Assembly: GCA_964430265.1 (NCBI GenBank)
Contig: CAYSEI010000002.1
Location: forward strand, 20,769-84,768
Origin: an uncultured Pseudomonadales bacterium
GTDB lineage: Bacteria; Patescibacteriota; Microgenomatia; UBA1400; CAYXSR01
Direction: 5' to 3'
DNA length: 64,000 bases
A model generated the notes under the pieces. It saw only the letters and a program-made list of their open reading frames with translations, made no database searches and was not told the origin of the DNA. Below are positions 21,289 through 44,522 of this stretch, piece by piece (the first letter of the stretch is position 1; every line of letters starts with the position of its first letter). The translations under genes and the position numbers were made by a program.

Positions 21289-23106
21289 TTAAAAAAGAAA
21301 ACTAGGGTTTTCCGCCAGTTCCAGTAATTCGGGAGGTATTTCGCTGACAAACCTTGAGATTTGATTATATGTGCGGGAGCCGAAATATAGACGGTTTTGA
21401 GTATAGGTCAAAAATAGTTTTTTTCTGGCTCTAGTCATTCCTACATAACAAAGCCTTCTTTCTTCTTCGAGTTCCTCTTTATTTTTCATTGAACGTGAAT
21501 GGGGAAAAAGTCCTTCTTCCATTCCAACAATAAAAACAATATCAAATTCCAAGCCTTTAGCTGAATGCAGGGTCATTAACTTAATAGGCTCTTCTTTTTC
21601 GTTATGTTTGTCTGGAAAATATTGATTTTGTACTAAAGAAACATTTTCCAGAAAACTTTGTAGATCCGGAAATTCTATTGCTACAGATAGAAGTTCTTTA
21701 ATATTTTCAATACGAGAGTAATCTTCACTATCTTCAGGATCATATAAATCCCAATAACCGGATTTTTTCAAAACTTGATCCAGTATCTGATAAGTTTCAA
21801 TTTCTTTGTCATTGTCAATCAATTGCTTGCGAAACTTCTTGAATTTTTTAAATCTTCTTTTACCAAGTTTTTCAATTCGTTCATGCGAAACTGTATCTTT
21901 TGGATTAGCTATCAAGCGCAAATAGGCAATACAATCTTTTATTTCTTTTCTTTCATAAAAGCCGAAGCCGCCTACTAAAGAATAAGGGATGCTGTAGCGC
22001 AAGAAAGCTTCTTCTAAAGGTCGAGATTGAGCATTTGTTCGATAAAGAATTGCAATGGAAGGTTGATTATGAGTCTCACGTAATCTGTTTATTTTTTGAA
22101 TTATGAACTCTGCTTCTTTTTTTTCATTGCGTGCTTCATGGAGTTTGATCTTTTCACCGGTATTTTTATTGGTCCAAAGTTTTAAAATTGGATGTGTAGT
22201 GTTTTTATTGATTACTGCATAGGCAGCATCCAAAATGTTTTGTGTAGAACGGTAATTTCTTTCTAAATTGATTGTTTCCAAATTGGGAAAGTCTTTGTGT
22301 AATCTATTTAAATTTCGGTAATCAGCTCCGCGCCAGGCATAAATTGATTGGGAAGCATCTCCTACAACCGTGAGATTTTTCCATTTTTTTGCCAGAAGCT
22401 TTGTTAGACGGTATTGTGCTTGATTTGTGTCTTGATATTCATCAACTAAAATCCAGCGATATTGATTTTGGTATTTTCTTAGAACCTGGTCTTTTTGCTG
22501 AAAAAGTTTGACAGTTTTAAAAAGTAAATCACCAAAATCAAGCGCATTACTTTTTTTTAGTGCTTTTTGATATTGAAGGTATATTTTTGCAACTTCCTCT
22601 TCAAAGCCGGAAGAGACAAATTGTGGATATTCAAGTTCGGAAACTAATTCATTTTTGGCGGCGTTTATCATATACAAGATTTTTGAAGGGTTGTATTTTC
22701 TGGTAGAAAGATCCATTTGCTTAATAATTTGTTTCATCAATGCTTTTTGGTCATTGGTATCATAAATTACAAAGGAAGGTGGAATATCAATATTTTTTCC
22801 GTCTTTTCTCAAAATTCTTGCACCTAAGGCATGAAAAGTAGAAGCCAAGGGTGGTTTTTTTACCTTTTCTTTAACAATAATTCTTTTAATGCGTTCCTTC
22901 ATTTCACCCGCAGCTTTATTAGTAAAAGTTACCAAAAGAATTTGATTAGGATTGATTTCTTTTTCCAACACAAGCCAGACTGCACGATAAGTTAAAGTAC
23001 GGGTTTTGCCGCTACCGGCGCCTGCAAGAATAGAAAGAGGACCTTCACCGTAGGTGACTGCTTTTTTCTGTTCTTGGTTCAATTCTTTCAAAAGGTCTAG
23101 GGCCAT
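21289..23106 (-). CDS. uvrD: UvrD/PcrA/Rep-family SF1 DNA helicase (compact, 605 aa).
   Basis: Walker A GAGSGKTRTL. DEYQDTN, VGDASQSIYAWRGA, YRST and VGMTRARKKL motifs. Confidence 0.85.
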   Translation of the reverse strand: MALDLLKELNQEQKKAVTYGEGPLSILAGAGSGKTRTLTYRAVWLVLEKEINPNQILLVTFTNKAAGEMKERIKRIIVKEKVKKPPLASTFHALGARILRKDGKNIDIPPSFVIYDTNDQKALMKQIIKQMDLSTRKYNPSKILYMINAAKNELVSELEYPQFVSSGFEEEVAKIYLQYQKALKKSNALDFGDLLFKTVKLFQQKDQVLRKYQNQYRWILVDEYQDTNQAQYRLTKLLAKKWKNLTVVGDASQSIYAWRGADYRNLNRLHKDFPNLETINLERNYRSTQNILDAAYAVINKNTTHPILKLWTNKNTGEKIKLHEARNEKKEAEFIIQKINRLRETHNQPSIAILYRTNAQSRPLEEAFLRYSIPYSLVGGFGFYERKEIKDCIAYLRLIANPKDTVSHERIEKLGKRRFKKFKKFRKQLIDNDKEIETYQILDQVLKKSGYWDLYDPEDSEDYSRIENIKELLSVAIEFPDLQSFLENVSLVQNQYFPDKHNEKEEPIKLMTLHSAKGLEFDIVFIVGMEEGLFPHSRSMKNKEELEEERRLCYVGMTRARKKLFLTYTQNRLYFGSRTYNQISRFVSEIPPELLELAENPSFLF

Positions 23107-23146
23107 GTTAAAATCATAACGTAAAAGAATTAATCACTCAACAACA

Positions 23147-24175
23147 ATGTTTGGTAAAAAAAATAAAAGTTTAATTTATATTATCTTAGCAATTATCCTC
23201 ATCCCTCTTTTCTATTTAGGAGGACGTTTTTTATACAAAAAAATAAAAGCACCACAATTGGCTTATTCAATCATCTCTGCTGATACTTCTGTTTTGGCAT
23301 CTGACGATAACCATACTAATTTTTTAATTTTAGGCACAGGCGGAGAAAATCATACATCGGGTGATTTAACAGACACTATTATTTTTACATCGATAAATAT
23401 TAAAACAGCAGATGTTGTGATGTTATCAATTCCTCGAGATATATGGTTAAAATCTTTGAAAGCAAAAATTAATACTGCTTATCATTATGGAAATGAAAGA
23501 GGTGAGGGATTTGAATTAATAAAAGAATCCATAAAAGAAATTACGGGACAGCCTGTTCATTATTCGGTTTTAATTGATTTTCAAGGGTTTGTTGAATTAA
23601 TAGATTTATTAAATGGGATTGAAGTTGACGTGGAAAACAGCTTTGACGACTACAAATATCCAGTTCCGGGAAAAGAAAATGCGGACTGTAACGGTGATCC
23701 GGAGTATCAGTGTCGCTATCAACACCTGCATTTTGAAAAAGGATTACAGCATATGGATGGTAAAAGAGCGCTGAAGTTTGTACGTTCGCGCAATGCAGAA
23801 GGAGATGAAGGGACAGATTTTGCCCGCAGTAAAAGGCAGCAAAAAGTAATGCTGGCAATCAAAAAGAAAATCTTGTCCTATAAAACTTTATTAAATCCAC
23901 AAAAGCTTTTGGAAATCAAAAAGAATTATGAAAAAAACGTCAAAATAGAACCACAACTAGATGAAAAGGAAATGGGTGCTTTAGTATCTCTTTTTAGAAA
24001 ATTTACCAAAGAGAATAAAGACTTGCAAACAGTAAACTTAGATACAGGAACGGAAGAGAATCCGGGCTTTTTAATCAATCCTCCAATTGAAGAATATGAA
24101 CAATGGGTTTTGGTTCCCCGCAGTGGAAATTGGAAAAATTTTCATCGAGAAATAGAAGAAAAAATTTTTCAGTAG
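23147..24175 (+). CDS. LytR-CpsA-Psr (LCP) family cell-wall glycopolymer phosphotransferase.
   Basis: An N-terminal TM anchor. DTIIFTSIN...VMLSIPRD...VHYSVLIDFQGF...ALKFVRSR motifs. Confidence 0.8.
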   Translation: MFGKKNKSLIYIILAIILIPLFYLGGRFLYKKIKAPQLAYSIISADTSVLASDDNHTNFLILGTGGENHTSGDLTDTIIFTSINIKTADVVMLSIPRDIWLKSLKAKINTAYHYGNERGEGFELIKESIKEITGQPVHYSVLIDFQGFVELIDLLNGIEVDVENSFDDYKYPVPGKENADCNGDPEYQCRYQHLHFEKGLQHMDGKRALKFVRSRNAEGDEGTDFARSKRQQKVMLAIKKKILSYKTLLNPQKLLEIKKNYEKNVKIEPQLDEKEMGALVSLFRKFTKENKDLQTVNLDTGTEENPGFLINPPIEEYEQWVLVPRSGNWKNFHREIEEKIFQ

Positions 24176-24193
24176 AGAAAAACAAAATTACAA

Positions 24194-25129
24194 ATGGCGA
24201 AAAACAAAAGAAAAATAGATTTTATTGGAATTGGTGCGCCGCGCAGTGGTTCTACATGGCTGGCTCAATGCTTATATGAACATCCAGAGATTGAATTTCC
24301 CGGCAAAAATACTGCAAAAAAACTGCATCCTTTTGATAAGGAAATAAATTTTTTTTGTGAAACTCTTTTAAGAAGCAGTTATTCACAGAAAAATCGTTAT
24401 TCAAAAGGAATTGATTGGTATCTTAATTTATTTGATTGGAAAAATACTGAAAGAATAAGGGGAGAGTTTAGTGTAGGGTACTTTGCTGATAAAAAAGCTC
24501 CTAAAAGAATAAAAAAGCATTTTCCTAAAATTAAACTAATAGCTATTTTGAGAAATCCCGTTGAAATGGTGTATTCAATTTATCATCATCTTTGTGCTTT
24601 AGTACACACAGAAATGCCTAAGAATTTTGAAACAGCTCTAGAGCAAGAAAAATATAAAAAATTACGTCTGCATTGGGGATTGTATTACAAACAACTTTCA
24701 TATTATTTAAAGTTTTTTGACCAAGATCAGTTTTGTATTGTTTTATTGGATGACGTGAAAAAAAGTCCTAAAAAAGTTGTGCAGCAAGTATATTCATTTT
24801 TAAACGTTGAATCTGATTTTCAACCTTCGGTTTTAACGCAAAAAGAAAATCAAGCTGTGAGGCCTAATTCAAAAATCTTACAAAGAGTTGGTTATAAAAT
24901 GCTAAAAGCTACAGAGAAGCTAGGGTTTAAAAGTGTTCACAACGAATTAAGCAGAAATAGGTTTCTTAAATACATTTACAACAGATATAATCTTAAAAAA
25001 CACAAATATCCTCATTTAAAATTTCAAACAAGAAAAAAACTTTTTAAATACTATAAAAAAGATATTGAAAAACTTGAAGTATTATTAGATCGTTCGTTAA
25101 ACGATTGGCTAAAATATAAAACAAATTAG
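24194..25129 (+). CDS. PAPS-dependent sulfotransferase family protein.
   Basis: 5'-PSB motif GAPRSGSTWL. 3'-PB-like LRNPVEMVYSIYHH. Confidence 0.8.
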   Translation: MAKNKRKIDFIGIGAPRSGSTWLAQCLYEHPEIEFPGKNTAKKLHPFDKEINFFCETLLRSSYSQKNRYSKGIDWYLNLFDWKNTERIRGEFSVGYFADKKAPKRIKKHFPKIKLIAILRNPVEMVYSIYHHLCALVHTEMPKNFETALEQEKYKKLRLHWGLYYKQLSYYLKFFDQDQFCIVLLDDVKKSPKKVVQQVYSFLNVESDFQPSVLTQKENQAVRPNSKILQRVGYKMLKATEKLGFKSVHNELSRNRFLKYIYNRYNLKKHKYPHLKFQTRKKLFKYYKKDIEKLEVLLDRSLNDWLKYKTN

Positions 25130-25139
25130 AAAGGGAAAT

Positions 25140-26333
25140 TTGTTTGCAGAAATAATAATATTTATAAGCGTCTTTTTTATTTATTATATTTTAGGCAATA
25201 ATATTAATACAGGCCACGATTTTTTTGTTCCTCTTGCAGAGGCTTTTTTAAAAGGACGGCTTTATGTTAATAAAATGGCTTATGAGTTACACGAAATGGT
25301 CTCACTGGAGGAAGTAAAAACAGGGATATATAAACAGGTTGCTGACGGAAGCAAAGGAATTTTTTATGTTATTTATCCGCCAATGCCGGCAATTTTATTG
25401 ATGCCTCTTGTTTTAATTTGGGGTCAAGATTTTAACCAAAGCCTTTTTTCCATGCTTATTTGTTCTTTGAGTTCAGTTTTTGCTTTTAGACTTTTTAAAT
25501 CACTCAATTTAAGCATAAAAAAAAGCTTTTGGCTCTTAGCTCTTTTAGTCTTTGGATCAATGCAGTGGTATCACGGAACAATAGGATCCTCTTGGTATCT
25601 TTCTTTGGCATGCGCAATGCTTTTTTTATGGATAGCAATTAGTCTGACCCTAAAAAATAAATCACTTATTTTAATTGGTTTATTTTTAGGATTTGCATAT
25701 TTATCTAGGTTTTCCGTTATATTAAGCTTTCCTTTTTTCTTGATTAACACTCAAAAATTTTGGTTTAAGAAAAAAGGATTTAAAATTAAGCCATTACTTA
25801 TGTTTTTTTCGGGAATATTTTTATGTTTAGCTATTTCTTTTTTATACAATTATTTGCGTTATGGAACAATCTGGCATATTGGATATCACTTACTTGAAAA
25901 ACGTTGGTACAATATTGCAAATGAATATGCAGACGGTTCATATAGTCTGAGTTATTGGCCTCGTCACATCAAAGCTTTATTCTGGAGTTTTCCGCATAAA
26001 ATTAATGGATTTCCCTTTTTTGAACCCAATTATCATTCAATGGCAATTTGGATAGTTATGCCGGCTGTGATTTTGGCATTTTGGGCTCCCTTTAAGAAAA
26101 AGATTGTTTGGAGTAGCTGGTTAGTAATTATTTTAATTGCCTTATCACATTTTTTTCACGGCGGAGTTGGTGCAACTCAATTTGGATATCGATATGCAAT
26201 GGATTACTTTCCATTTTTATTCATTCTTTTTGTGCAGGCAATAAAAAAGAAATTTTACTGGTGGCAAAAAGTATTGATTATATTGAGTATTATTATTAAT
26301 TTGTGGGGCGTATATTTTAGTTTCTGGAGATGA
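25140..26333 (+). CDS. Polytopic membrane protein, probable GT-C-like glycosyltransferase or accessory protein.
   Basis: About 10 TM segments. It sits in the GT-C array. No diagnostic motif was recognised. Confidence 0.4.
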   Translation: MFAEIIIFISVFFIYYILGNNINTGHDFFVPLAEAFLKGRLYVNKMAYELHEMVSLEEVKTGIYKQVADGSKGIFYVIYPPMPAILLMPLVLIWGQDFNQSLFSMLICSLSSVFAFRLFKSLNLSIKKSFWLLALLVFGSMQWYHGTIGSSWYLSLACAMLFLWIAISLTLKNKSLILIGLFLGFAYLSRFSVILSFPFFLINTQKFWFKKKGFKIKPLLMFFSGIFLCLAISFLYNYLRYGTIWHIGYHLLEKRWYNIANEYADGSYSLSYWPRHIKALFWSFPHKINGFPFFEPNYHSMAIWIVMPAVILAFWAPFKKKIVWSSWLVIILIALSHFFHGGVGATQFGYRYAMDYFPFLFILFVQAIKKKFYWWQKVLIILSIIINLWGVYFSFWR

Positions 26334-27835
26334 AAATAAACTACAAATATTTAACTTTTGAAGTGCTAATTCTAATTTTAATTCTTGGATTACCTTTGTT
26401 GCTAATGTATCAGAGTATAGGCAAAAAAGGACCAACAATTGATGAACAAAATACATATATTCCAATAGTAGAAAATTTAATTCAAGGAAATAAATATTAA
26501 AATATATCCAAGAGCTATTTTCATCCACCATTGTCTTTTTATATTTCCTCTTTGACCTCTAAAATTTTTAAAACAAAAACATCTAGAATTACAATGTTGT
26601 CTGTTTTTATAACATTAGGAGTATTTTTTTTCTATGTTTCTAAGGCTAGCTTTAATAAGCTAACGGCTTTTTTATTATTGTTAATATATGCTTGGTTTCC
26701 GGAAATTTTAGCTCATTCTCGCTTAATAACGCCTGATATGACATTAGCATGTACGACTTTTATTTATCTTTATTTCTTATATTTGCTTTTGCAAAAGCAA
26801 AACTGGAAAAGAACTTTGTTTACGGGGCTAAGTTTAGGACTGGCTTTTATAAGTAAATATACAGCTTTAATGTTGATCCCTATCTCTTTATTATTACTTT
26901 TTGTAAATTTAATAAAACCCAAAAACAATATAAAAATGAAAATTTTTAGTTTGTTTGTAGTAATAATAACTGCTTTGTTTGTTATTAATTTCAGTTATAA
27001 TTTTCAGCAAAGTTTTTCTTTACCTGAATTTGAAAGTAGAACTTTTCAAAGATTAGAATCAAATCTTATAACTAATAAATTATTAAAAACAACACCATCT
27101 TTATATTTAAAAGGCTTAGATTTTCAACTTTATCAGTCAAGTTTGGATAATAGAAGAAATTTTTTTATGCAGCAAAGATCGTCCAAAGGAATTCCTCAAT
27201 ATTTTATTGGAACTTTTTTATTTAAAACTCCTTTACCGCTGTTAATTTTATTCTCAGCTAATATTTTATTTATAATTTTTATAAGTAAGGAAAAAAACTC
27301 TTTGCATTTTTTAATTCCGGTTTTGTTCTTTTTTGTTTACTTTAGTTTTTTTAATAATTTAAATATTGGTTTTCGTTACTTACTGATGATTTATCCATTA
27401 CTTATTTTTAGTTTAGGGGAATTTTTTGATTACATTTGCAAACAAAAAAAACAAATTTTTAAAATTATTCTTTTTTTATTGATAGCTTGGAATATATTAG
27501 AAACAATCAAAATACACCCTCATTATTTAGCTTATGCTAATCAATTAGCAGGAGGACCTCAAAATGGATATAAAATTTGGGCAGATTCTTCATTAGACTG
27601 GTTTCAAGACAATGATGCTTTTGGTAGATATTTAGACAAGAAACAGATTGATATCCCAATTGATCCACAACATCCTATTTTAGGAAAATTTGCTGTAAGT
27701 GTTTTTTCAATGAATAAAGAGAATTATTACGAATATCAGTGGTTAAGAGATTTAGAAAAAAAGCCTGTTGATCAATATGGATATACATGGTTAATTTTTG
27801 ATATAACAAAAGAAGATTTAGGGAAAATAGATTAA
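26330..27835 (+). pseudogene. GT-C (ArnT/PMT_2-like) glycosyltransferase gene interrupted by a single in-frame TAA at 26498-26500. It is either a pseudogene, a sequencing error or a recoding site.
   Basis: A 56-aa upstream ORF (MKINYKYLTFEVLILILILGLPLLLMYQSIGKKGPTIDEQNTYIPIVENLIQGNKY) lies in the same frame as the 26531 ORF. Reading through the TAA gives ...GNKY*NISKSYFHPPLSFY..., which restores the canonical TM1, DE-loop and HPPL N-terminus of GT-C enzymes. The ATG at 26330 overlaps the upstream TGA stop (ATGA). Confidence 0.55.
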
Positions 27836-27849
27836 ATAAATACTAATAA

Positions 27850-29502
27850 ATGAATAAGAAAATAAGAATACTGATACTTTTAATTTTTTTTACTTTAGGT
27901 TTAGTTTTAAGATTGTATAAATTAGGGTTAATACCGCCCGGTACTAATTGGGATGAAACAGTCGTTGGTTATACCGGTTATTCAATTCTAAAAACTGGGA
28001 AAGATGAATGGGGGAAAAAAATACCTATTTTTACTAAAGGTTTTGGTGATTATCGTTCCGCGGTATATTCTTATCTAACGACTGTTCCTATTAAGATATT
28101 TGGATTAACGCCTTTTGCTATACGGTTTCCTGCAGCTGTTTTAGGTTCAACCGGAATAATTGCCTTTTATTTTTTAATAAAAAATTTATTTGAATTTTAT
28201 AACTTAAAGGGGAAATCAAAGAATATCGCTGTTATTGGTGCGTTTTTATTTACAATTAATCCTTGGAACTTCTTTTTTAGCCGTTATGGCTTTGATGTGA
28301 GTAGTTGTTTTATATTTGGATTGTTCTCACTGACGTTTGTTTTTTTATTTTTAAACAAAAAAAAATATCTGCATTTATTTTTTTCAATTATTTTTGCTTG
28401 TTTAAGCATATATAGCTATCATAATGCAAGAATTGTGATTCCTTTTGTTTTTTTATTTTTATTTGTACAGAATTTTTCTATATTTATTAAAAATAGAAAG
28501 CAAATAGCATTAGTTTTTTTAACGGGTATTCTTTTATTTTTGCCTTTTTTGATATATGTAAAAACAGGCTTTCTATCAATAAGAACAAAAGAGCTTTCAA
28601 TATTTTCTAATTATTGGAAAAAACATGAATTAGAAAAATTACTAGTAAAAAGCACATTTTTAAGAAGTTTTGCTTTTTTTTATAAATATTTTTTTTACTT
28701 TCAGGAAATATTTAAAAATATCTTAAGAAATCTTTCTTTAAAATTTCTTTTCTTAGGAGAGGATTTACATTATCGTTTTGGAATTAAATACTACGGAAGG
28801 TTTTTATATCCTAGTTTAATTTTTTTGTTTTTAGGACTTTTCAAAATATGGACCAGGAATAAAAAATTGTTTGCTTTTTTAACATCTTTTATTTTAGTAT
28901 CTACGTTGCCAGCGGCATTAACAGTAGACAGCCCTCATCCTTTAAGAGTATATTTTCTTTTAATTCCTTTATTAATAATCATAACTTTTGGTATTTATTA
29001 TTCATTTAAAGGAAAAGCTATTAAATTTAAGCGCAGATTCTTAACAGGTGCTTTTATAGTCTATATGTTGTTTTTATCTTTATATATAAATGCTTACTTT
29101 AATTTTTTTAATGAGGAAGCGGATCAAAATTGGCAGTATTTTTATAGAGAATTAGTAGAATCTATAGATAATCAGTATAAAGATTATAATAGGATTTTAT
29201 TTGATATTCATTGGGGACAACCACATATATTTATGTTTTTTTATCAAAAAATAGATCCTTTAATTGTACAAAAAGAAATGAACAGAAAGGATCAGCTTAG
29301 CGAATCTCGTGGGGTTGTTAGCAGATTTCAAAATATTCATTTCAAAGATGTCCATGAGAGTGATATATTAAATTGTCATAATTGTTTAATAATTGAAGAT
29401 GAAAAGAGAACAAAGTTAGAGAAAAATAAAGTTGTAAAGGAATTAGAAAACATAAAACTGAATAACGGAAATACTATTTTTTGGATATATAAAACGATAT
29501 GA
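27850..29502 (+). CDS. GT-C fold glycosyltransferase, family 39/83-like (ArnT/PMT_2).
   Basis: The first loop NWDETVVGYTGYSILKTGKDEWGKKIPIF, a polytopic N-terminal half and a C-terminal soluble region. Confidence 0.7.
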   Translation: MNKKIRILILLIFFTLGLVLRLYKLGLIPPGTNWDETVVGYTGYSILKTGKDEWGKKIPIFTKGFGDYRSAVYSYLTTVPIKIFGLTPFAIRFPAAVLGSTGIIAFYFLIKNLFEFYNLKGKSKNIAVIGAFLFTINPWNFFFSRYGFDVSSCFIFGLFSLTFVFLFLNKKKYLHLFFSIIFACLSIYSYHNARIVIPFVFLFLFVQNFSIFIKNRKQIALVFLTGILLFLPFLIYVKTGFLSIRTKELSIFSNYWKKHELEKLLVKSTFLRSFAFFYKYFFYFQEIFKNILRNLSLKFLFLGEDLHYRFGIKYYGRFLYPSLIFLFLGLFKIWTRNKKLFAFLTSFILVSTLPAALTVDSPHPLRVYFLLIPLLIIITFGIYYSFKGKAIKFKRRFLTGAFIVYMLFLSLYINAYFNFFNEEADQNWQYFYRELVESIDNQYKDYNRILFDIHWGQPHIFMFFYQKIDPLIVQKEMNRKDQLSESRGVVSRFQNIHFKDVHESDILNCHNCLIIEDEKRTKLEKNKVVKELENIKLNNGNTIFWIYKTI

Positions 29503-30743
29503 AAATTTGGATAAAAACTCTAGTTGTATTTGGAATTTGTTTGCTAAGTTTATTATTGCGTTTTAAAGTCTTTCCATACAAAACTCATTGGTCGGACATG
29601 TTTTTTTGGAAGGACTGGGGAAGAGGAATACTTGAATATGGTACTAAAGGTTTTTATAAACAATTCGGCTCAGATTATCTACCATTTTATCCGCTTGTTT
29701 TGGGTGTAGTTAAAACAATTTATAATTATACACACGAACTTCTTAATATAAAAGATATTTATTACTACAAATTTCCCGCGGCAATTTCCGATATTTTTTT
29801 TGGTTATTTAATTTTTAGATTTTTAAAGGAAGTAAAGAATTATAAAGCCGGAATTTTAGGAATGATTTTATTTCTTTTTAATCCCGCTGTATTTGCAAAC
29901 TCAAGTATGTGGGGGCAAGTGGATGTGATAGGTACTTTATTTTTATTTGCCGGTTTTTATCTTTTATATAAGAAGAAATATTGGGTATCCGGATTGTTTT
30001 TGGGGTTATCTTTAGTTACTAAAGCCTTGTATTTAATAGCTATCCCGTATTTATTTTTACTATTTTTTAGAAAAGAGGATTTTTACATAAATATACATAG
30101 GAAAATTCTTAAAAAATGTTTCTTAGTTTTTCTGGGAATATTAGTTTCAATAATAGTTATTACTTTGCCTTTTGTAGAAGGTGGTCTTTTTGCAGTTTTT
30201 AAGTTTTTGTTTGAACGCTATAAGATTATTAGTGAAAGATATCCTTATACTTCAGTAAATGCATTTAATTTTTGGGGATTGGTGGAAAAAGAATTCTGGC
30301 TTTCTGATAAAAGAGGACCTTCCTTTTTGACTTATAACAAATGGGGAACACTAATTACTCTTTTATTGATTGCAGCTGTTTATATAAAAGGTTTTTTAAA
30401 TGCAATAAGAAAAAAATGGTTTTATTCTTTAGTTTTGGGGATATCTTTATTATTTTATTCCAGTTTTTTATTTTTGACCCGGATGCATGAACGGCACTTT
30501 TTTTATGTTATTCCCTTTTTAGCAGTTGCTGCGGTTATTAAGCACAGATTAATAATTGCTTATTTAATTACTAGTTTAACTTACTTATTAAGTTTGCACT
30601 TTGCTCTGGAATATTATTATCAGGCCAAAGCATATGTTTTTTCGTCTTTGCAGATCAATTTAATCAGCGGAGCCAATGTACTAGTGTTTTTTTGGTTATT
30701 GTTTGAGTTTTTACTTTTGACAAAAAATGAAAAAAAAATATAA
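29499..30743 (+). CDS. GT-C-like polytopic membrane protein, paralog A of a three-member tandem family.
   Basis: Shares YKFPAAISDIFFG, YPYTSVNAFNFW and LFLTRMHERHFFY motifs with the next two ORFs. Confidence 0.6.
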   Translation: MKIWIKTLVVFGICLLSLLLRFKVFPYKTHWSDMFFWKDWGRGILEYGTKGFYKQFGSDYLPFYPLVLGVVKTIYNYTHELLNIKDIYYYKFPAAISDIFFGYLIFRFLKEVKNYKAGILGMILFLFNPAVFANSSMWGQVDVIGTLFLFAGFYLLYKKKYWVSGLFLGLSLVTKALYLIAIPYLFLLFFRKEDFYINIHRKILKKCFLVFLGILVSIIVITLPFVEGGLFAVFKFLFERYKIISERYPYTSVNAFNFWGLVEKEFWLSDKRGPSFLTYNKWGTLITLLLIAAVYIKGFLNAIRKKWFYSLVLGISLLFYSSFLFLTRMHERHFFYVIPFLAVAAVIKHRLIIAYLITSLTYLLSLHFALEYYYQAKAYVFSSLQINLISGANVLVFFWLLFEFLLLTKNEKKI

Positions 30744-31938
30744 AAAACTTCTTATTTATTTAATAGTTGGATCAGTTATTTTAGTTATCCGCTATATTCT
30801 CAGTTTAAGAAAATATAATCTAGACATCTTAAATCATGCAGTTTGGACAGAAAAAGCCTTAGCTGATGGATTAAAAGGGTATTATAAAAGAATATATTCT
30901 CCCTATGCAGAAGCAAACTATCCGCCTTTTGCAAACCTGCTTTTTTATTTGTCACATAAAACTTATAGGATGCTAGGTTATTCCGGAGGTTTGAATAATC
31001 TTTTGGCTGCTTTTTATAAAATTCCTTTGATAATTGCTGATTTAATAATTGTTTTTTTATTGTTTAATATTTTTAAAAATAAAAAGAAAAAATTTAAAAA
31101 ATATTTTTATCCTTTCTTTTTTTTAATTAATATTGCTTTAGTTTATAACAGTGTTTACTGGGGGCAGTTGGAAAGTGTGATAACCCTGTTTTGTATGCTT
31201 TCCTTATATTTTCTTTTTAAAGAACCCAATTTATTAGCCTATGTTTTTTTTGCTTTGGCAGTTCTGACAAAACAGACAGCACTGGTTTTAACGCCGCTGT
31301 TTTTTTTACTCAGCTTAAAAAAACTTAATATAAAAAAAACAATTGTAGGAATGGGAATAATATATTTGATCATTTTTATCTTTTTTATTCCTTTTACAGG
31401 CAAAATTGATTTTTTTTATCCAGTGAGATTTTATTTGCAAACTTCAGGCGGACAACTTCACCAGAATCAAGCGACCGTAAATGCTTTTAATTTCTGGTTT
31501 TTATTAGGACAAAACAAAATTTCAGACAGCACCACCCTTTGGAAGTTGATTGATTATCGTCTGGTTTCAATTCTGATATGTTTATTATTTTTCTTGCCGA
31601 TATTAATAAAAGTATATAATAAAAAGCCTAAAATAATTTCAGTTTTTAAAGCTGCAGGACTTTTATTTTACATAGTCTTTCTTTTTTTAACCCGGATGCA
31701 TGAAAGGCATCTTTATCCTGCATTAGCGTTTTTAATTCCCGGTTTAAATTCAATTATTAGTCTATTATTGTATGTTATAATTTCATTTATACATTTTTTT
31801 AATATGGATTTTGTTTGGCAGGAAATGATGGCAGATCCTATACCTTCAACAATTTTTAAAGGTAAAATAATGGCAGGGATTCTTTTAGCAATGTTCGTTT
31901 ATTTTTATACAAATTTTTTGATAAGAAAAGAAAAATGA
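30727..31938 (+). CDS. GT-C-like polytopic membrane protein, paralog B.
   Basis: FYKIPLIIADL, QATVNAFNFW and LFLTRMHERHLYPAL motifs. Confidence 0.6.
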   Translation: MKKKYKKLLIYLIVGSVILVIRYILSLRKYNLDILNHAVWTEKALADGLKGYYKRIYSPYAEANYPPFANLLFYLSHKTYRMLGYSGGLNNLLAAFYKIPLIIADLIIVFLLFNIFKNKKKKFKKYFYPFFFLINIALVYNSVYWGQLESVITLFCMLSLYFLFKEPNLLAYVFFALAVLTKQTALVLTPLFFLLSLKKLNIKKTIVGMGIIYLIIFIFFIPFTGKIDFFYPVRFYLQTSGGQLHQNQATVNAFNFWFLLGQNKISDSTTLWKLIDYRLVSILICLLFFLPILIKVYNKKPKIISVFKAAGLLFYIVFLFLTRMHERHLYPALAFLIPGLNSIISLLLYVIISFIHFFNMDFVWQEMMADPIPSTIFKGKIMAGILLAMFVYFYTNFLIRKEK

Positions 31939-34406
31939 TCTTATGGGTTTTAGGTATTAGCTTCTTATTTCGTTTGTTTATTGCTCAATATGGCACTTTG
32001 CAACTGGATATGAATGCTTTTATTTATTGGAGCAACCGTCTGATTCAAGTAAATTGGACTAGTTTTTATGAAGTCTGGTGTGATTATTTACCTACGTATT
32101 TATATATTCTTGCAGGTTTAGGCTATTTAAAGAATTTTTTCGTTTCCGTTGGAATTAATCTACCGGAATTTGTAATTTATAAATTGCCTTCGATTTTTGC
32201 AGACATCGGTATGGGTTGGATGATTCATAAAATATTTAAGCAAAATAATAAAAAAAAGCTGGGAATAATTGCTGCGCTTGTTTATTTGCTAAACCCGGCT
32301 ATATTTGGCAATTCAACTTTATGGGGACAAGCAGATAGTTTATTTGCTTTTGCAACTCTATTAAGTTTTTATCTTTATTATAAAAAAAATTATTTATCTG
32401 CCAGTATGTTATTGGCGGCTACAAGTTTACTTAAACCTTTAGGATTTTTATTGGTACCAGTTTTTGTTTTTGATCTTTGGAAAAAAGAGAAAATAAAAGA
32501 AATAATCTATTCCGGTACAGTTTTTATTCTTTTTTCTTTTCTGCTTTTTTTGCCTTTTTCCAGTGGAAACATGTTAAATTTTATAATTTCTAGATTTTCA
32601 CAAACCTTTAACCAGTACCCTTATACTACTCTTAATGCTTTTAATTTCTGGCAGTTTCTTGATATGAACTGGGTTAAAGACTCGCTTAAGTTTATTGCGA
32701 TGAGCTATCAAAACTGGGGGATAATATTGTTTGCGCCTTTTTATTTTACTTTTTTAAAGCAGTTTTCCCAACAAAAAAGTATTTTTAAAAAGAGTTTAAT
32801 AATCGGTTTGGTTTTCTATTTTAATTTTTTGTTTACCACCCGAATGCATGAAAGACACTTGTTTACTGCCCTGCCTTTTTTACTGCTAGGAATGGGAGAA
32901 GATAAAACAATCGGATTTTTTTATGTTTTAGCTTCTTTAACTTACAGTTTGAACCTTTATTATGCCTGGCGTTCAATTGAAAAAAGGAATTTTGTTTTAA
33001 GCAGTTTTTTAATTAAAACACTTTCTTTAACAAACATTTTAAACGCAATGGCTTTATTTTTAAAAAATTCATTTGCTTTTATTAAAAACAATTGTGAAAA
33101 TTTATGCAGTAAAATATCTATTCTAGTACAGAGAATTGGATTAAAATCCAAACAAAAAAAATTAAATTATGAGAATATATTTTTATTAATTTTTGTTTTG
33201 TTTATTTTGTTTACCCGCTTTTATCAACTGGGTTATCCGCAAGACTATATTTATGATGAGGTTTATCATGCATTTACTGCCGGAGAAATGGCGGAAGGCA
33301 ATGTTAAAGCATGGGAATGGTGGAATAATGCACCGGAAGGCTTTGCATATGAATGGACCCATCCTCATCTTGCTAAGATTCTTATGTCTTTAGGAATCAA
33401 GGTTTTTGGTAATAATTCGTTCGGATGGCGGTTTGGTTCTGCTGTTTTTGGAACCGGAGTAATATTATTAACCTATTTGTTAGGTAAAGAAATATTTAAA
33501 AACAAAAAAATTGCTGTTGTTGCTGCTGTTCTGTTTTCTTTGGACGGAATGCTTTTAACAATGTCAAGAATTGGAATGACTGACGTTTATCTGGTATTTT
33601 TTATCCTTTTGACAATTTTATTATCCCTTAAAAAAAGAATATTTTTAGCATCCGTCAGTTTGGGAATGACAATCGGAGCCAAATGGACAGGGATTTATTT
33701 AATTCCCATAATAGGGTTAATATTAATTTGGAAGCAAGAAAAACATGACATCTTCAGTAAAAGCCTTTTAAAAAACATTTTGACATTTGTGTTTATAACA
33801 CCACTGGTTTATACAGCAACATACTTGCCTTTTTTTCTTACAGAACACACATTAACTCAGTTTTTTGAATTACAAAAAAGCATGTGGGGATATCATACAA
33901 AGCTAAAAGCAACCCACGGGTTTCAATCAGAAGCATATACTTGGCCGTTTATGATCAGACCTGTCTGGTTTTGGGTAGATTATCAAAAAAATAAAATAGC
34001 CAATATTTATAATTTAGGTAATCCTTTACTTTGGTGGAGTAGTTTAACAATTTTGCCAATATATATTTATCGTAGTATTGAAAAATATATGGAAAAAAAG
34101 AAAAAGAACATGCTTATTTTAATACCTGCATATTTTGTGTTCTGGGTTCCTTGGATTTTTTCACCCCGAGTTATGTTTTTGCATCATTATCTTCCAGCAC
34201 TGCCGTTTTTGTTTCTTATGAATGCGTGGTTTTGGGTTAAAGAGATAAAAGAATTAGTAACTGAAAATAAAACCTATTATTTAATTACCCTAACTTATTT
34301 GGCCATTATATTTATTACCTTTTTATATTTTTTACCGATTTATATAGGAATTCCTCTGCCAAAAAATCGCCTTGATTGGTGGTTTTGGTTTTCAACTTGG
34401 AAGTAA
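31935..34406 (+). CDS. Fusion protein: an N-terminal paralog-C GT-C domain fused to a C-terminal PMT-family (GT39) protein O-mannosyltransferase-like domain.
   Basis: The N-terminal half has IYKLPSIFADIG, YPYTTLNAFNFW and LFTTRMHERHLF. The C-terminal half has DEVYHAF...THPHLAKIL...FSLDGMLLTMSRIGMTD, typical of the PMT family, and a PMT_4TMC-like tail YHTKLKATHGFQSEAYTWPF. Confidence 0.75.
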   Translation: MILWVLGISFLFRLFIAQYGTLQLDMNAFIYWSNRLIQVNWTSFYEVWCDYLPTYLYILAGLGYLKNFFVSVGINLPEFVIYKLPSIFADIGMGWMIHKIFKQNNKKKLGIIAALVYLLNPAIFGNSTLWGQADSLFAFATLLSFYLYYKKNYLSASMLLAATSLLKPLGFLLVPVFVFDLWKKEKIKEIIYSGTVFILFSFLLFLPFSSGNMLNFIISRFSQTFNQYPYTTLNAFNFWQFLDMNWVKDSLKFIAMSYQNWGIILFAPFYFTFLKQFSQQKSIFKKSLIIGLVFYFNFLFTTRMHERHLFTALPFLLLGMGEDKTIGFFYVLASLTYSLNLYYAWRSIEKRNFVLSSFLIKTLSLTNILNAMALFLKNSFAFIKNNCENLCSKISILVQRIGLKSKQKKLNYENIFLLIFVLFILFTRFYQLGYPQDYIYDEVYHAFTAGEMAEGNVKAWEWWNNAPEGFAYEWTHPHLAKILMSLGIKVFGNNSFGWRFGSAVFGTGVILLTYLLGKEIFKNKKIAVVAAVLFSLDGMLLTMSRIGMTDVYLVFFILLTILLSLKKRIFLASVSLGMTIGAKWTGIYLIPIIGLILIWKQEKHDIFSKSLLKNILTFVFITPLVYTATYLPFFLTEHTLTQFFELQKSMWGYHTKLKATHGFQSEAYTWPFMIRPVWFWVDYQKNKIANIYNLGNPLLWWSSLTILPIYIYRSIEKYMEKKKKNMLILIPAYFVFWVPWIFSPRVMFLHHYLPALPFLFLMNAWFWVKEIKELVTENKTYYLITLTYLAIIFITFLYFLPIYIGIPLPKNRLDWWFWFSTWK

Positions 34407-40993: not shown

Positions 40994-42697
40994 ATGGTAC
41001 TTAAATTTTTTAAAAAGACGTTTTTACCATTTTGGAAGAACGGAAAAGCACTATTAATAAGAAGACAAAATAATATCCTTTCTGCGGCAATGGTTTTAAT
41101 GGTAATGATCTTTTCCTCCGGAATTTTGGGATTATTAAGGGATCGCTTGCTTGCTGGATATTTCTTTGCGCAAGGTGAACAATGGAAGCTTGATATATAT
41201 TTTGCTGCATTTCGTCTACCGGATATGCTTTTTCAGATTCTAGTACTTTCTGCATTATCTGCTGCTTTTATTCCTGTTTTTAGCGAATATTTGACAAAAG
41301 ACAAAAAAGAAGCAAACTATTTTGCTTCTTTGGTCTTAAACATTGGAACAATTTTGTTTTTGTTTGTTGCTGCACTAGTGTTTATATTTTCTAACTTTTT
41401 AAACGGACTGATTACTCACGGATTTGAACCAGAGCAAATGCAGGTTCTTAACCAATTAACCAGAATGCTTTTAGGAGCACAGTTTTTCTTTTTGCTTTCC
41501 AATTTCCTGAGTGGAATACTCCAATCAAACCAGAGATTTTTAATGCCGGCCTTTTCTTCTGTTTTGTATAATCTGGGAATCATATTGGGAATAGTTTTTT
41601 TAACTCCTCCAATGGGAATTTATGGACCTGTTTTAGGCGTTATTTTTGGTTCATTTCTTCATTTTATTATTCAGCTTCCGATTGCAAAAAGATTAGGATT
41701 TAATTATCAGTTTGTATTTAATTGGAATCACCCGGGTGTAAAAAAAGTAGGTCGTTTAATGCTTCCCAGGGTTATTTCTTTTACTGTTAACCAGCTGCGG
41801 TTAAATGTGATTGTTTATTTGGCAACTACTTTAAGTTCTGGTTCATTGGCAATGTATAATTTCGCGCAACATTTAAATTCATTACCTGTTAGTTTGTTTG
41901 GTTTAACAATTGGTCAAGCTGCACTTCCTACACTTTCTCGGGAGATAAAAAATAATCTAAAGAATTTTTCTGATTTATTTCTTTCTTCTCTTTTACAGAT
42001 AATATATTTTGCTTTTCCTGTGGGAATAATCCTGTTAGTTTTAAGAGTTCCAATGGTCAGATTAGCTTTTGGAGCTAAAAATTTTCCTTGGGAGGCGACC
42101 CTAACAACTGCCAAAGTTGTGGGTGTTCTGTCAATCTTTTTAGTTGCTAAAAGTACAACTCAGCTTCTAATTAGAACTTTTTATGCAATTCAGGATACAG
42201 TTATTCCTCTACTTTTAAGAGTAATTAATGTTTTGATCAATATTGTACTGGCTCTTGTATTTATCTATTCAATGGATATGGGTATTGTAGGCTTGGCGCT
42301 TGCTGAGGGAATTGCAGAAGTGGTGTTTGCTCTTACACTATTTTTACTTTTACATGTTAAAGTTGGCGGATTAATAAAAAGGGATTTTTTGCTTTCTTTG
42401 GGAAAGATAGTTTTAGGAGTATTTTTAACAGCCTTGTTTTTATGGATTCCAATGCGGATTTTAGACCGTTTTGTTTTTGATACTACTCTTACCTTAAATC
42501 TAATTCTTTTAACAATAATAACCTTATTAATTGGTGGAGGAGTATATGTTTTCTTTTCCTTCATACTGGATATTTCACAATTTAAAAGTTTGCTTGCGGT
42601 ATTAAAAAGATTTGGCAAGTGGAAAGAAATATTGGCAGAATCAGGAGAAGTTTTTGAAACCAGTCAGCCAGCCTCATTGCCACCGGAAAAAGATTAA
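40994..42697 (+). CDS. murJ: Lipid II flippase MurJ (MviN).
   Basis: 14 TM segments and N-terminal motifs (LLGLLRDRLLAGYF, DIYFAAFRLPDMLF). Confidence 0.85.
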   Translation: MVLKFFKKTFLPFWKNGKALLIRRQNNILSAAMVLMVMIFSSGILGLLRDRLLAGYFFAQGEQWKLDIYFAAFRLPDMLFQILVLSALSAAFIPVFSEYLTKDKKEANYFASLVLNIGTILFLFVAALVFIFSNFLNGLITHGFEPEQMQVLNQLTRMLLGAQFFFLLSNFLSGILQSNQRFLMPAFSSVLYNLGIILGIVFLTPPMGIYGPVLGVIFGSFLHFIIQLPIAKRLGFNYQFVFNWNHPGVKKVGRLMLPRVISFTVNQLRLNVIVYLATTLSSGSLAMYNFAQHLNSLPVSLFGLTIGQAALPTLSREIKNNLKNFSDLFLSSLLQIIYFAFPVGIILLVLRVPMVRLAFGAKNFPWEATLTTAKVVGVLSIFLVAKSTTQLLIRTFYAIQDTVIPLLLRVINVLINIVLALVFIYSMDMGIVGLALAEGIAEVVFALTLFLLLHVKVGGLIKRDFLLSLGKIVLGVFLTALFLWIPMRILDRFVFDTTLTLNLILLTIITLLIGGGVYVFFSFILDISQFKSLLAVLKRFGKWKEILAESGEVFETSQPASLPPEKD

Positions 42698-42698
42698 T

Positions 42699-44522
42699 AT
42701 GAAAAAAGACAGGATTCGCAATTTTTGTATTGTGAGCCATATTGACCATGGGAAAACTACTTTAACAGACCGTTTTTTAGAAGAGACAAAAACAATCGGT
42801 AAAAGAGACATGAAACAAAGAATTTTAGATTCACATCCGATTGCACAAGAAAAAGGTGTTACCATTAAACTTGCTCCTGTTAGAATGATTCATCCACTTC
42901 CAAGTGTGCATGAAGAATTATTTGGTTTTTCTGAAGCAATTTACAATCTTATAGACACCCCGGGACACGTGGATTTCTCTTATGAGGTTTCTCGTTCGCT
43001 TGCAGCTTGCGAGGGGGCAATTCTTTTAGTTGATGCTTCGCAAGGAATTGAAGCGCAAACCATGGCTACTGCAAGAGAAGCAATCAAACATAATTTGTTA
43101 ATGATTCCGGTAATAAACAAGATTGATTTGGATGAAGCACAAATTAAGGATACGGAAAGACAAATAGAGGATGCATTTGGCTTTAATAAGGAAGAAATAA
43201 TAAAAGTTTCGGCTAAATCAGGTGAGAATGTTACTAAATTGCTCAATGAAATAGTAATAAGAATTCCTCCGCCAAAAGGAGAGTTGAAAAAACCTTTTAA
43301 AAGTTTAGTGTTTAGTTCTGTTTATAGTCTTCATCAGGGAGTTATAGCTTATATTCGAGTTTTTCAGGGTCAAATAAAAAAAGGAGATAAGATAAGATTG
43401 CTTGCTTCGGAAGCAGAAAAAGAAATTGTTGACCTTGGCTATTTTGTTCCCCAGATGAAATCAACTGAAGTATTAGAAGCAGGAGAAGTTGGATGGATAG
43501 CTACTGGGCTAAAGGATGTCTCTCTCTGTCGTGTAGGTGATACGATTGTTAAAGCAGAGGATTACCAACAAGAAAAAATCCAGCCGCTCCCCGGATATAA
43601 AGAACCACAGCCAATGGTGTTTATTGATTTTTATCCTACGGATGATGAACGTTATGAAAGATTATTAAAAGCAGTGCGTAAACTTAAGTTAAATGACGCG
43701 GCTTTATATTACAAAGGAATTCATTCACCTCTTTTTGGACAAGGATTACAAATGGGGTTTTTGGGTGTTTTTCATGCAGAAGTTGTCCAGGAACGCTTGG
43801 AAAGGGATTTTGATATATCAGTTATTGCTACTACACCATCGGTTGGTTATAAGATTGTAACCCAGGATGATGAGGAAAAACTTATTTATTCTGCACAAAA
43901 ATGTCCACCTATGTATCAGATTAAAAAAGTGCTTGAACCTTATGCAAAAGTATCAATTTTTACACCGGTTGAATATATTGGCGGAATTTTACAGATCTGT
44001 CAAAGACACAGGGCTGAGATGATTGAACAGAAATCATTTGGTAAAAGAACACAAATTACTTATGAAATGCCCTTAATGGAAATGGTTTCCGGTTTTTATG
44101 ACCAGTTAAAGTCGGTCTCTTCTGGTTACGCAAGTATGGATTGGGAGCCTATTGATTTTAAAGAATTAAATGCAGCGCTTCTGGAAATATTAGTCAATCA
44201 GAATAAAATACCACCTTTAACTTTTATTGTTCCCAAAGAAAAAGCACAGGACAAAGCAAAAAAAATGGTTAAAAAACTAAAAAAAGAAATACCCCGCCAA
44301 CTATTTGAGGTAAATATACAAGGTTCAGTTGACGGTAGGATCATCTCTAAAGAACGTATTCCGCCTTTCAGAAAAAACGTAACTGCAAAACTGTATGGTG
44401 GTGATCAGACAAGAAAAGACAAACTCTTAAAAAAGCAGAAAAAAGGCAAAAAAAGAATGAAAGCTGTAGGGGAAGTGAATATTCCTCAGGAAGCTTTTAT
44501 GGAAGTCTTTAAAGAAGAATAA
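42699..44522 (+). CDS. lepA: Elongation factor 4 (LepA).
   Basis: IRNFCIVSHIDHGKTTL G1 motif, DTPGHVDF and NKID. The LepA-specific C-terminal domain ends the protein. The start is placed at the internal ATG (MKKDRIRNF) rather than the 42612 track start. Confidence 0.9.
   Translation: MKKDRIRNFCIVSHIDHGKTTLTDRFLEETKTIGKRDMKQRILDSHPIAQEKGVTIKLAPVRMIHPLPSVHEELFGFSEAIYNLIDTPGHVDFSYEVSRSLAACEGAILLVDASQGIEAQTMATAREAIKHNLLMIPVINKIDLDEAQIKDTERQIEDAFGFNKEEIIKVSAKSGENVTKLLNEIVIRIPPPKGELKKPFKSLVFSSVYSLHQGVIAYIRVFQGQIKKGDKIRLLASEAEKEIVDLGYFVPQMKSTEVLEAGEVGWIATGLKDVSLCRVGDTIVKAEDYQQEKIQPLPGYKEPQPMVFIDFYPTDDERYERLLKAVRKLKLNDAALYYKGIHSPLFGQGLQMGFLGVFHAEVVQERLERDFDISVIATTPSVGYKIVTQDDEEKLIYSAQKCPPMYQIKKVLEPYAKVSIFTPVEYIGGILQICQRHRAEMIEQKSFGKRTQITYEMPLMEMVSGFYDQLKSVSSGYASMDWEPIDFKELNAALLEILVNQNKIPPLTFIVPKEKAQDKAKKMVKKLKKEIPRQLFEVNIQGSVDGRIISKERIPPFRKNVTAKLYGGDQTRKDKLLKKQKKGKKRMKAVGEVNIPQEAFMEVFKEE

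Follow-up and report, generated by a model that had tools for sequence, protein, structure and literature searches.

A GT-C glycosyltransferase gene split by a single in-frame TAA in an uncultured Patescibacteria bacterium

The closest described systems to the locus analyzed here are ArnT and the PMTs. ArnT is the undecaprenyl-phosphate-L-Ara4N:lipid A transferase of family GT83 (structures 5f15 and 5ezm), while the PMTs (protein O-mannosyltransferases) belong to family GT39 and include Pmt1-Pmt2 (6p25), Pmt4 (9i5k), and S. coelicolor Pmt. A DE motif is a hallmark of GT-C enzymes and is treated as catalytic. In Pmt1, Mtb Pmt, and ArnT, activity is lost or lowered when the motif is mutated (PMC8698208). 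Two further systems concern glycosyltransferase alleles that have lost function within surface-glycan loci. Pneumococcal capsule type 33E is reported to arise from inactivation of wciE (PMC10462825), and allele diversity of pgl is reported in Neisseria (PMC6959607).

The gene discussed here is found at 26330-27835 on the forward strand of a 64,000-nucleotide stretch of DNA (the window), and one in-frame TAA interrupts it. The host is an uncultured bacterium of the Patescibacteria (CPR, Microgenomates-like), and the gene appears to be part of an operon for envelope glycosylation. All features described below are on the forward strand.

Structure and family of the split gene

The interrupted gene can be read in a single frame. 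From the ATG at 26330 there are 56 sense codons, a TAA at 26498-26500, 444 further sense codons, and the natural terminator, also TAA, at 27833-27835. The first-pass annotation had reported two ORFs with the in-frame TAA as their sole separator; the sequence, the ORF list, and the translation bear this out, and the translation is identical to the string it gave. The listed 434-aa ORF starts, as reported, at 26531, where the TTG is the leucine codon of the HPPL motif. This is the only case in the window of a short open segment abutting a long one across a single stop to form one gene. Other same-frame neighbours in the window are separate complete genes according to a frame scan and Pfam. The possibility that in-frame stops are common in this genome was rejected, since a six-frame scan of the window found no second split gene.

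The gene overlaps its upstream neighbour, and here too the earlier description is correct. The upstream gene (25140..26333) encodes a 397-aa polytopic membrane protein with about ten hydrophobic segments, as judged from the ORF list and hydropathy, and this protein has no Pfam match. Its TGA at 26331-26333 overlaps the ATG at 26330 to give ATGA. The same overlap is present in a contig from a sister strain (L162).

The two pieces carry complementary parts of a GT-C enzyme. The N-terminal profile described below and an alignment of homologs show that the first 56 codons (26330..26497) encode TM1 (approximately residues 9-31) and, following it, the beginning of extracytoplasmic loop 1 with its acidic DE motif, the arrangement of the GT-C/PMT_2 type. 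The motif consists of D38 and E39 (codons GAT GAA, 26441..26446) in the context T36-I-D38-E39. An alignment of 54 sequences has E39 throughout and D38 in at least 90% of them. The remaining 444 codons and the natural TAA (26501..27835) are fully open and, based on Pfam and the homolog alignment, include TM2 onward, the PMT_2 domain, and a C-terminal periplasmic domain. PMT_2 (PF13231) matches residues 65-218 (26522-26983) with 66.6 bits against a cutoff of 26.1 and an E value of 3e-18; the match covers profile positions 2-155 of 160 and starts at HPPL. PMT (PF02366) also matches, with 31.3 bits against a cutoff of 22.7 (E 2e-7).

Gene callers start the protein at the ATG at 26594..26596, which encodes M89 at the beginning of TM3. 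Their 413-aa product (P0001) is 100% identical to the window, and its PMT_2 match begins at profile position 36 of 160. The leader of this ATG is A-rich and in this respect similar to the leaders of other genes in the genome, where a Shine-Dalgarno sequence is mostly missing. From these features the ATG is a possible restart site, and its product would be without TM1, the DE loop, and TM2. The conserved methionine is present in intact homologs as well.

Homologs connect the two pieces across the stop. A profile of the N-terminal module was built from 53 homologs, with the window sequence excluded, and searched against 897 open segments. It matches the segment 26321-26497 with an E value of 2.7e-8, and the runner-up, the N-terminus of a neighbouring PMT_2 gene, has an E value of 0.037. 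In tblastn searches with full-length homologs the alignments run straight across the stop (for example residues 8-511 of P0013, E 2.5e-75). The full-length homologs have 498-535 aa, typically about 512, and align across codon 57 and on to the C-terminus. The alternative that the small and large ORFs belong to unrelated families is contradicted by the profile match and by these alignments, and the claim of a single gene holds.

The fold was checked on P0003, a full-length homolog with 43% identity that stands in for the window protein. Its model has a pLDDT of 94.5, and its best PDB match is ArnT (5f15; Foldseek E 1.8e-8). There are 25 PDB matches with E values of 0.001 or less, and besides ArnT these are OST (STT3/AglB/PglB), Pmt, ALG9/ALG12, and AftB. 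The homolog model places the predicted gene product in the GT-C fold. The description of a textbook GT-C N-terminus is confirmed as to family by the PMT_2 score, the conserved D38 and E39, and the ArnT-like homolog model. When the two parts are read together, 26330-27835 is by homology one complete predicted GT-C glycosyltransferase gene of the PMT_2/ArnT type. The frame is not continuous, as the TAA separates D38-E39 from the PMT_2 domain. The locus is a GT-C family member by descent and, as it reads here, a disrupted copy. The normal role of the gene would be extracytoplasmic glycosylation of an envelope component, dependent on a lipid-linked sugar.

The gene is followed by a run of four polytopic GT-C-like genes (27850..34406), recognized by Pfam, pairwise blastp, hydropathy, and synteny with a related locus (L001). 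They form the operon context and are a PMT_2 gene (27850-29502), a polytopic GT-C-like gene (29499-30743), a GT87 gene (30727-31938), and a gene for a fused protein with a GT87-like part, PMT, and PMT_4TMC (31935-34406). The locus had been called a paralog-rich array. GT-C-like neighbours are indeed present, but they are only distant paralogs, with at most 31% identity over partial alignments.

Sister and related loci

The sister strain has a sense codon in place of the stop. L162, a Logan contig (SRR15425353), was found through the upstream gene as a relative with at least 90% identity. It is colinear with positions 22410-26579 of the window, with 93.7% nucleotide identity over 4.2 kb and 256 differing positions, and it covers the first 83 codons of the GT-C gene, to the contig end. 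The DNA alignment shows CAA (Gln) at codon 57, where the window has TAA (26498..26500), a difference of a single C>T at 26498, and the L162 frame is open through that point (L162:3920-4168). This suggests that the lesion is a single C>T change that arose after the two strains had separated. A comparison with the locus in a sister genome had been proposed along with the option of a recent nonsense mutation, and the CAA codon and open frame of L162 favour that option. At the amino acid level 57 of the 82 shared sense codons (70%) are identical. The dN/dS ratio over these 82 codons is 0.36 with a dS of 0.33, suggesting that constraint acted on the N-terminal region during most of the time in which the strains diverged.

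There is little sign of decay in the gene. The 444 downstream codons have about 86 one-step paths to a stop, and they contain no second lesion, neither an additional stop nor a frameshift; the dN/dS of the 82 N-terminal codons is likewise not near 1. With that number of paths, a neutral ORF would have a 5% chance of remaining open at a divergence of 0.035. If the gene is a pseudogene, it is a young one. The intact 444 codons fit a very young lesion, and they fit continued selection on a truncated product equally well. Compared with most close homologs, the window protein has somewhat more departures from residues conserved in the family. These departures may reflect an earlier relaxation of constraint or simply a long branch.

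The locus as a whole is variable between the sister strains. Its dS is 0.17-0.33, compared to 0.035 for the flanking uvrD. L162 has a lesion of its own here, as its sulfotransferase gene has lost 1 nt, suggesting that inactivating changes in this cluster are not unusual.

Among 161 related loci, N-terminal in-frame stops are found only in the window and in L001, and at different positions. L001 (JGI sample 3300009788) is a syntenic ortholog locus with approximately 48% amino acid identity. It has two in-frame stops, TAG at 71-73 and TAA at 110-112 of the contig, in its first 37 visible codons, upstream of the same internal methionine, and they lie within 112 nt of the contig end. The placement of the stops upstream of a shared methionine seems more regular than random pseudogenization predicts. 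A split or truncated form conserved within the family was rejected as an explanation, with N-terminal internal stops in only these two of the 161 loci. Two apparent short family members were also rejected: P0051 has a miscalled start with an intact upstream frame, and P0091 has a frameshift in a high-GC genome. Scans of genome and metagenome contigs found no relatives of the gene body above 46-49% identity, and a search with the first 140 residues gave a single weak match. No contig matched P0001 or the 56-aa ORF in an exact look-up, and the 83-aa fragment of the sister is absent from the protein collection.

Explanations for the in-frame stop

The split gene is probably an ordinary nonsense, loss-of-function allele, a young pseudogene that arose after the split from the sister strain. 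A single C>T transition would have turned codon 57 from CAA (Gln) into TAA. Translation from the ATGA-coupled ATG at 26330 would then end after 56 residues and yield a fragment with TM1, D38-E39, and the first helix of the loop. What follows in the enzyme would either not be made or be made from the ATG at 26594 as the 413-aa protein. Without TM1, loop 1, and TM2 that protein should be catalytically dead; it would not have the D38-E39 motif and is probably inactive.

Two alternatives deny that the gene is interrupted in effect. In one, the organism really has CAA or another sense codon, and the T is an assembly or base-calling error or a base that entered the metagenomic consensus from a minor strain, so that the gene is intact. 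The 258,766-bp contig that holds the window is of metagenome style, the stop is a single base away from the sense codon of the sister, and the other 444 codons are perfectly intact, as expected of a functional gene. On the other hand, with 256 differences between the window and the sister over 4.2 kb, true substitutions far outnumber plausible consensus errors, and genuine mutations in AT-rich genomes are most often C>T. Position 26498 is outside any long homopolymer, with no more than four identical bases, and the independent lesion in the sister shows that real inactivating changes happen in this locus. A sequencing error is possible but less likely than a recent nonsense mutation; we consider this alternative unlikely and infer that the T at 26498 is a real mutation. 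In the other alternative, an amino acid is inserted at the TAA of codon 57 often enough to be of use, which would make the full-length enzyme a regulated product. The reading frame is kept, the sequence on either side of the stop is conserved, and near-cognate misreading of TAA by tRNA-Gln would insert glutamine and restore the ancestral residue. Against this, the stop is CAA in L162, no other of the 161 related loci has a stop at this position (L001 stops elsewhere), and TAA is the normal terminator of 44 of the 60 genes in the window, a count that also led to the rejection of codon reassignment. A stretch of 121 nt that includes the stop and continues beyond it has no better fold than its shuffled versions (z = +0.58). 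An Rfam search of the window found tRNA only, and the sole tRNA there is a tRNA-Cys, with no suppressor tRNA within the window. Programmed readthrough, which had been listed as an option, is left unsupported by the unconserved stop, the role of TAA as main terminator, and the lack of downstream structure, and it is extremely improbable.

The last alternative accepts the stop but not the death of the gene. The 413-aa protein from the ATG at 26594 could be kept as a non-catalytic partner or scaffold, or the stops could be recurrent on/off alleles that vary a surface glycan. All three premature stops of the ortholog group (codon 57 in the window and two in the syntenic ortholog locus L001, at about 48% amino acid identity) are upstream of the same conserved methionine, and the 420-444 codons downstream stay open in both loci. 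A K/R-rich stretch precedes M89, where TM3 begins, and loss of both TM1 and TM2 keeps the membrane topology. The A-rich leader resembles those of genuine starts in this mostly Shine-Dalgarno-less genome, and the raised dS of the locus relative to uvrD is what diversifying pressure on a surface-glycan locus would be expected to produce. However, the truncated product has neither the DE motif nor 35 positions of PMT_2, and the stop is missing in the closest relative, L162. The stops in L001 are near a contig end, where assembly errors concentrate. The methionine is conserved in intact homologs too, hence it gives no evidence of a dedicated start, and the other short family members are the miscalled start and the frameshift mentioned above. 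The placement statistic is post hoc and is based on two loci. This alternative is improbable, and we would give similarly little weight to the idea that N-terminal knock-out of the operon's first GT-C gene is a recurrent, selected event in these Patescibacteria. If it were, the stops could switch off surface-glycan decoration, for example to evade phage or host, or they could yield a topologically sound, non-catalytic GT-C pseudoenzyme working within a multi-enzyme glycosylation machinery.

The nonsense allele has consequences for annotation and for the study of CPR envelopes. The CDS calls of 56 aa (P0121) and 413 aa (P0001) should be joined into a single GT-C gene that is annotated as disrupted; it would be wrong to count one small protein and one truncated transferase. 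The locus is a concrete example of how CPR envelope-glycosylation clusters vary between near-identical strains through elevated divergence and single inactivating lesions. If such alleles segregate or recur, this could be a sign that glycan variation is adaptive in these episymbiont-type bacteria.

Comparison with known systems

ArnT, the best structural match of the homolog model, shares the most features with the gene. Both have TM1, loop 1 with an acidic catalytic motif, a TM2 that starts with a PPL-type sequence, many TMs, and a C-terminal periplasmic domain, and both fall under Pfam PMT_2. They share just 12-14% sequence identity, and the gene described here belongs to a Patescibacteria host and is interrupted. 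Searching PDB sequences with a profile gave no match to ArnT; the sole match, which is marginal, was to Pmt4 (E 0.025). Lipid A is probably not the acceptor for the enzyme of this gene, because the host belongs to the Patescibacteria.

The PMTs resemble the gene in the match to the PMT model (2e-7) and have the DE motif of loop 1 in common with it (PMC8698208). In contrast to them, the split gene has no MIR domain and no PMT_4TMC, which is found in the neighbour at 31935-34406. Its C-terminal domain is of another kind, and the similarity is far below that of orthologs.

For capsule type 33E and Neisseria pgl, a change in the glycan phenotype is demonstrated, whereas the change described here is one of sequence. 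The likeness to wciE and pgl is that a single inactivating change affects one transferase of a multi-gene glycan locus and that close strains differ. It extends to the divergence of the locus, which is here much greater than that of its flanks.

Reading frame and family of the interrupted gene

The reading frame at 26330-27835 (+) encodes a GT-C glycosyltransferase cut by one in-frame TAA, as the first-pass annotation had proposed. A 56-codon ORF runs from ATG 26330 to TAA 26498-26500, and past this stop another 444 codons are open in the same frame, up to TAA 27833-27835; the sequence, the ORF list, and the translation agree on both pieces. The sequence also bears out the ATGA in which ATG 26330 overlaps TGA, the stop codon of the preceding ORF (25140-26333). 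The TTG at 26531, listed as the start of a 434-aa ORF, is the leucine codon of the HPPL motif and an artefact of ORF listing. In a six-frame scan of the 64 kb, no other gene was found split into short and long open segments across one stop; the other same-frame neighbours are distinct genes with differing domains.

Sequence conservation across the stop joins the two pieces. The downstream piece matches Pfam PMT_2 (3e-18) and also Pfam PMT. The PMT_2 match in the split gene opens at HPPL (residue 65, profile position 2), while the called 413-aa product from ATG 26594 (P0001) enters the profile only at position 36 of 160. Full-length homologs of 498-535 aa (32-43% identity) align continuously over the stop position. 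Among 54 aligned sequences E39 is invariant, and T36, D38, Y43, and H65-P-P-L68 are at least 90% conserved. The N-terminal module was also profiled from 53 homologs, with the window sequences left out, and this profile was searched against 897 open segments. Its top match was segment 26321-26497 (E 2.7e-8), followed by the N-terminus of the adjacent PMT_2 gene (E 0.037).

Origin and age of the stop

Comparison with a sister strain, which the first-pass annotation had called for, suggests that the stop is younger than the split between the two strains. Exact-sequence look-up of the upstream 397-aa protein led to a relative with at least 90% identity in a Logan assembly, on contig L162 (SRR15425353_14815, 4169 bp). 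L162:1-4169 and window 22410-26579 are colinear, with 93.7% of nucleotides identical. L162 has the same ATGA-coupled start, followed by 83 open codons to the contig end (MKRNYKYL...TIDEHNTYIPIVEKLTKGYKYQNIPKSYYHPPLSFY...), and in the DNA alignment CAA stands opposite the TAA, which points to a single C>T transition. Over the 82 shared sense codons dS is 0.33 and dN/dS is 0.36, compared with dN/dS of 0.05-0.17 in neighbouring genes (Nei-Gojobori), indicating that the N-terminus was under purifying selection through most of the divergence, less tightly than its neighbours.

The body of the gene carries no second lesion in 444 codons. These codons offer the equivalent of 85.7 single-substitution routes to a stop. 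Under neutrality they would have a 50% chance of remaining open after 0.008 substitutions per site and a 5% chance after 0.035, distances about one tenth or less of the window-sister divergence at this locus. Either the stop is very young or the downstream body is still under selection. The CAA in L162 favours a recent nonsense mutation, one of the first-pass options.

The stop is probably a real mutation, and an error in the consensus or assembly is unlikely. Window and L162 differ at 256 positions in 4.2 kb, well above plausible consensus errors, and C>T is the commonest mutation type in AT-rich genomes such as this one. The site has no long homopolymer (four identical bases at most), and at this locus the sulfotransferase gene of L162 has an independent lesion, the deletion of 1 nt. 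Reassignment of TAA is ruled out because it closes 44 of the 60 gene-sized ORFs in the ORF list (TGA 11, TAG 5). Programmed readthrough, another first-pass option, was not upheld: L162 does not share the stop, folding of the 121 nt that span and follow it is no stronger than in shuffles (z = +0.58), and the window contains no suppressor tRNA. Only background near-cognate misreading is expected, and this would by chance restore Gln.

Selection for N-terminal truncation, or on/off glycan variation, is an alternative of low probability. The homolog closest to the gene body, P0002 (49% identity), is encoded on L001 (JGI 3300009788, Ga0114923_10005191), a contig that opens inside the GT-C gene. The genes that come after it on L001 correspond to window 29499-30743, 30727-31938, and both halves of 31935-34406 at 46-48% identity, marking L001, by gene order, as a syntenic ortholog locus. 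Upstream of the called start of P0002 (L001:1-262) are two in-frame stops, TAG 71-73 and TAA 110-112 (...SLS*TDFTIDERNIYL*IGKEL...HPPLSFY), and the TIDE and HPPL motifs can still be made out there. All three premature stops of the ortholog group thus precede one shared internal Met, with the bodies open, and under uniform stops weighted by nonsense-target size this placement has a chance of ~0.12-0.16 in the window and ~0.005 in L001. However, the statistic is post hoc and covers two loci, both L001 stops are no more than 112 nt from where the contig ends, and assembly errors concentrate at contig ends. Two other short family members are not truncations of this kind: P0051 has a miscalled start and P0091 a frameshift. 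If true, recurrent selected knock-outs would be the one small chance of wider significance for the split gene. Overall the gene is a young pseudogene or loss-of-function allele of an ordinary kind, with a consensus error as the alternative, and is not a case of programmed recoding.

The surrounding glycan locus and its host

The envelope-glycan locus looks like a hotspot of recombination or diversification inside one species-level lineage. Window-L162 synonymous divergence climbs steeply along 22410-26579: it is 0.035 in the uvrD part and 0.17 in a LytR-family gene, the sulfotransferase and the 397-aa membrane protein both reach 0.29, and the GT-C N-terminus has 0.33. A Logan LepA protein (P0129) is 99% identical to that of the window and may come from the L162 strain. 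The L162 sulfotransferase (L162:1785-2707) is split by its deletion, which maps near window 24440, into 87-aa and 226-aa calls, while the window copy (24194-25129) is intact at 311 aa. With the lesions at separate sites, either each strain has its own inactivating lesion in one cluster or each assembly its own error. Two independent metagenome assemblies break in the first ~250 nt of the GT-C gene (window 26330-26580), where L001 starts and L162 ends, which hints at strain-level heterogeneity there.

GC is 26-28% across the GT-C gene run (26000-32000) and 31-38% on both sides; membrane-protein amino-acid composition or foreign origin of the cluster could be the cause. The 823-aa protein of window 31935-34406 carries both a GT87-like and a PMT/PMT_4TMC module, while in L001:3998-7290 they are two genes with a GT2-family gene in between; either the genes fused in the window lineage, or L001 underwent a fission and an insertion. 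In the distant, high-GC homolog P0091 (L163:2640-4398, ENA ERZ25039492 contig_580), the N-terminal DE/PPL module is out of frame with the body, through either a frameshift or an indel error in the 2.57-Mb contig. Elsewhere, 55289-56443 (-) and 57190-58326 (-) are paralogous (50.7% identity over 377 aa), with a third ORF (56425-57186) between them.

The LepA relatives, the 31% GC of the window, and a short MetRS place the host in a deep Microgenomates-like CPR lineage. The best named relatives of LepA are Patescibacteria at ~50% identity (Beckwithbacteria, Woykebacteria, Cerribacteria). The LepA ORF as mechanically listed (42612-44522) has TTG 42612 as its start, which gives it an 86-nt overlap with the MurJ gene (40994-42697); since near-identical database proteins have 607 aa, the true start is probably ~29 codons downstream. 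In most window genes the leader is A/T-rich and has no recognisable Shine-Dalgarno sequence, so start calls, including a restart at 26594, cannot be judged by ribosome-binding-site strength.

Predicted consequences for the enzyme

The modelled structure of a homolog places the stop within the GT-C fold. The AlphaFold2 model of P0003 (pLDDT 94.5, pTM 0.93) has ArnT (5f15) as its best match (E 1.8e-8). The 25 matches at E <= 0.001 are OST subunits (STT3/AglB/PglB), Pmt1/2/4, ALG9/ALG12, and AftB, with AftA, AftD, and Emb at weaker E-values; all listed matches are GT-C enzymes. The stop-equivalent position in the model lies in the first extracytoplasmic loop, after the first loop helix and before TM2.

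The 56-aa product retains TM1 and D38-E39 and nothing more. Restart at ATG 26594 (M89, at the start of TM3) would lose TM1, loop 1, and TM2, giving a product that keeps its membrane topology without the DE motif. A two-piece enzyme is unlikely because the only start codon between the stop and TM2 is the TTG within HPPL, and the M89 product would lack residues 58-88. The loop-1 DE motif is described as a hallmark of GT-C enzymes: when it is mutated, yeast Pmt1 has no in vitro activity, M. tuberculosis Pmt is less active, and ArnT loses its function (PMC8698208). By comparison with these enzymes, any truncated product of the split gene would be catalytically inactive.
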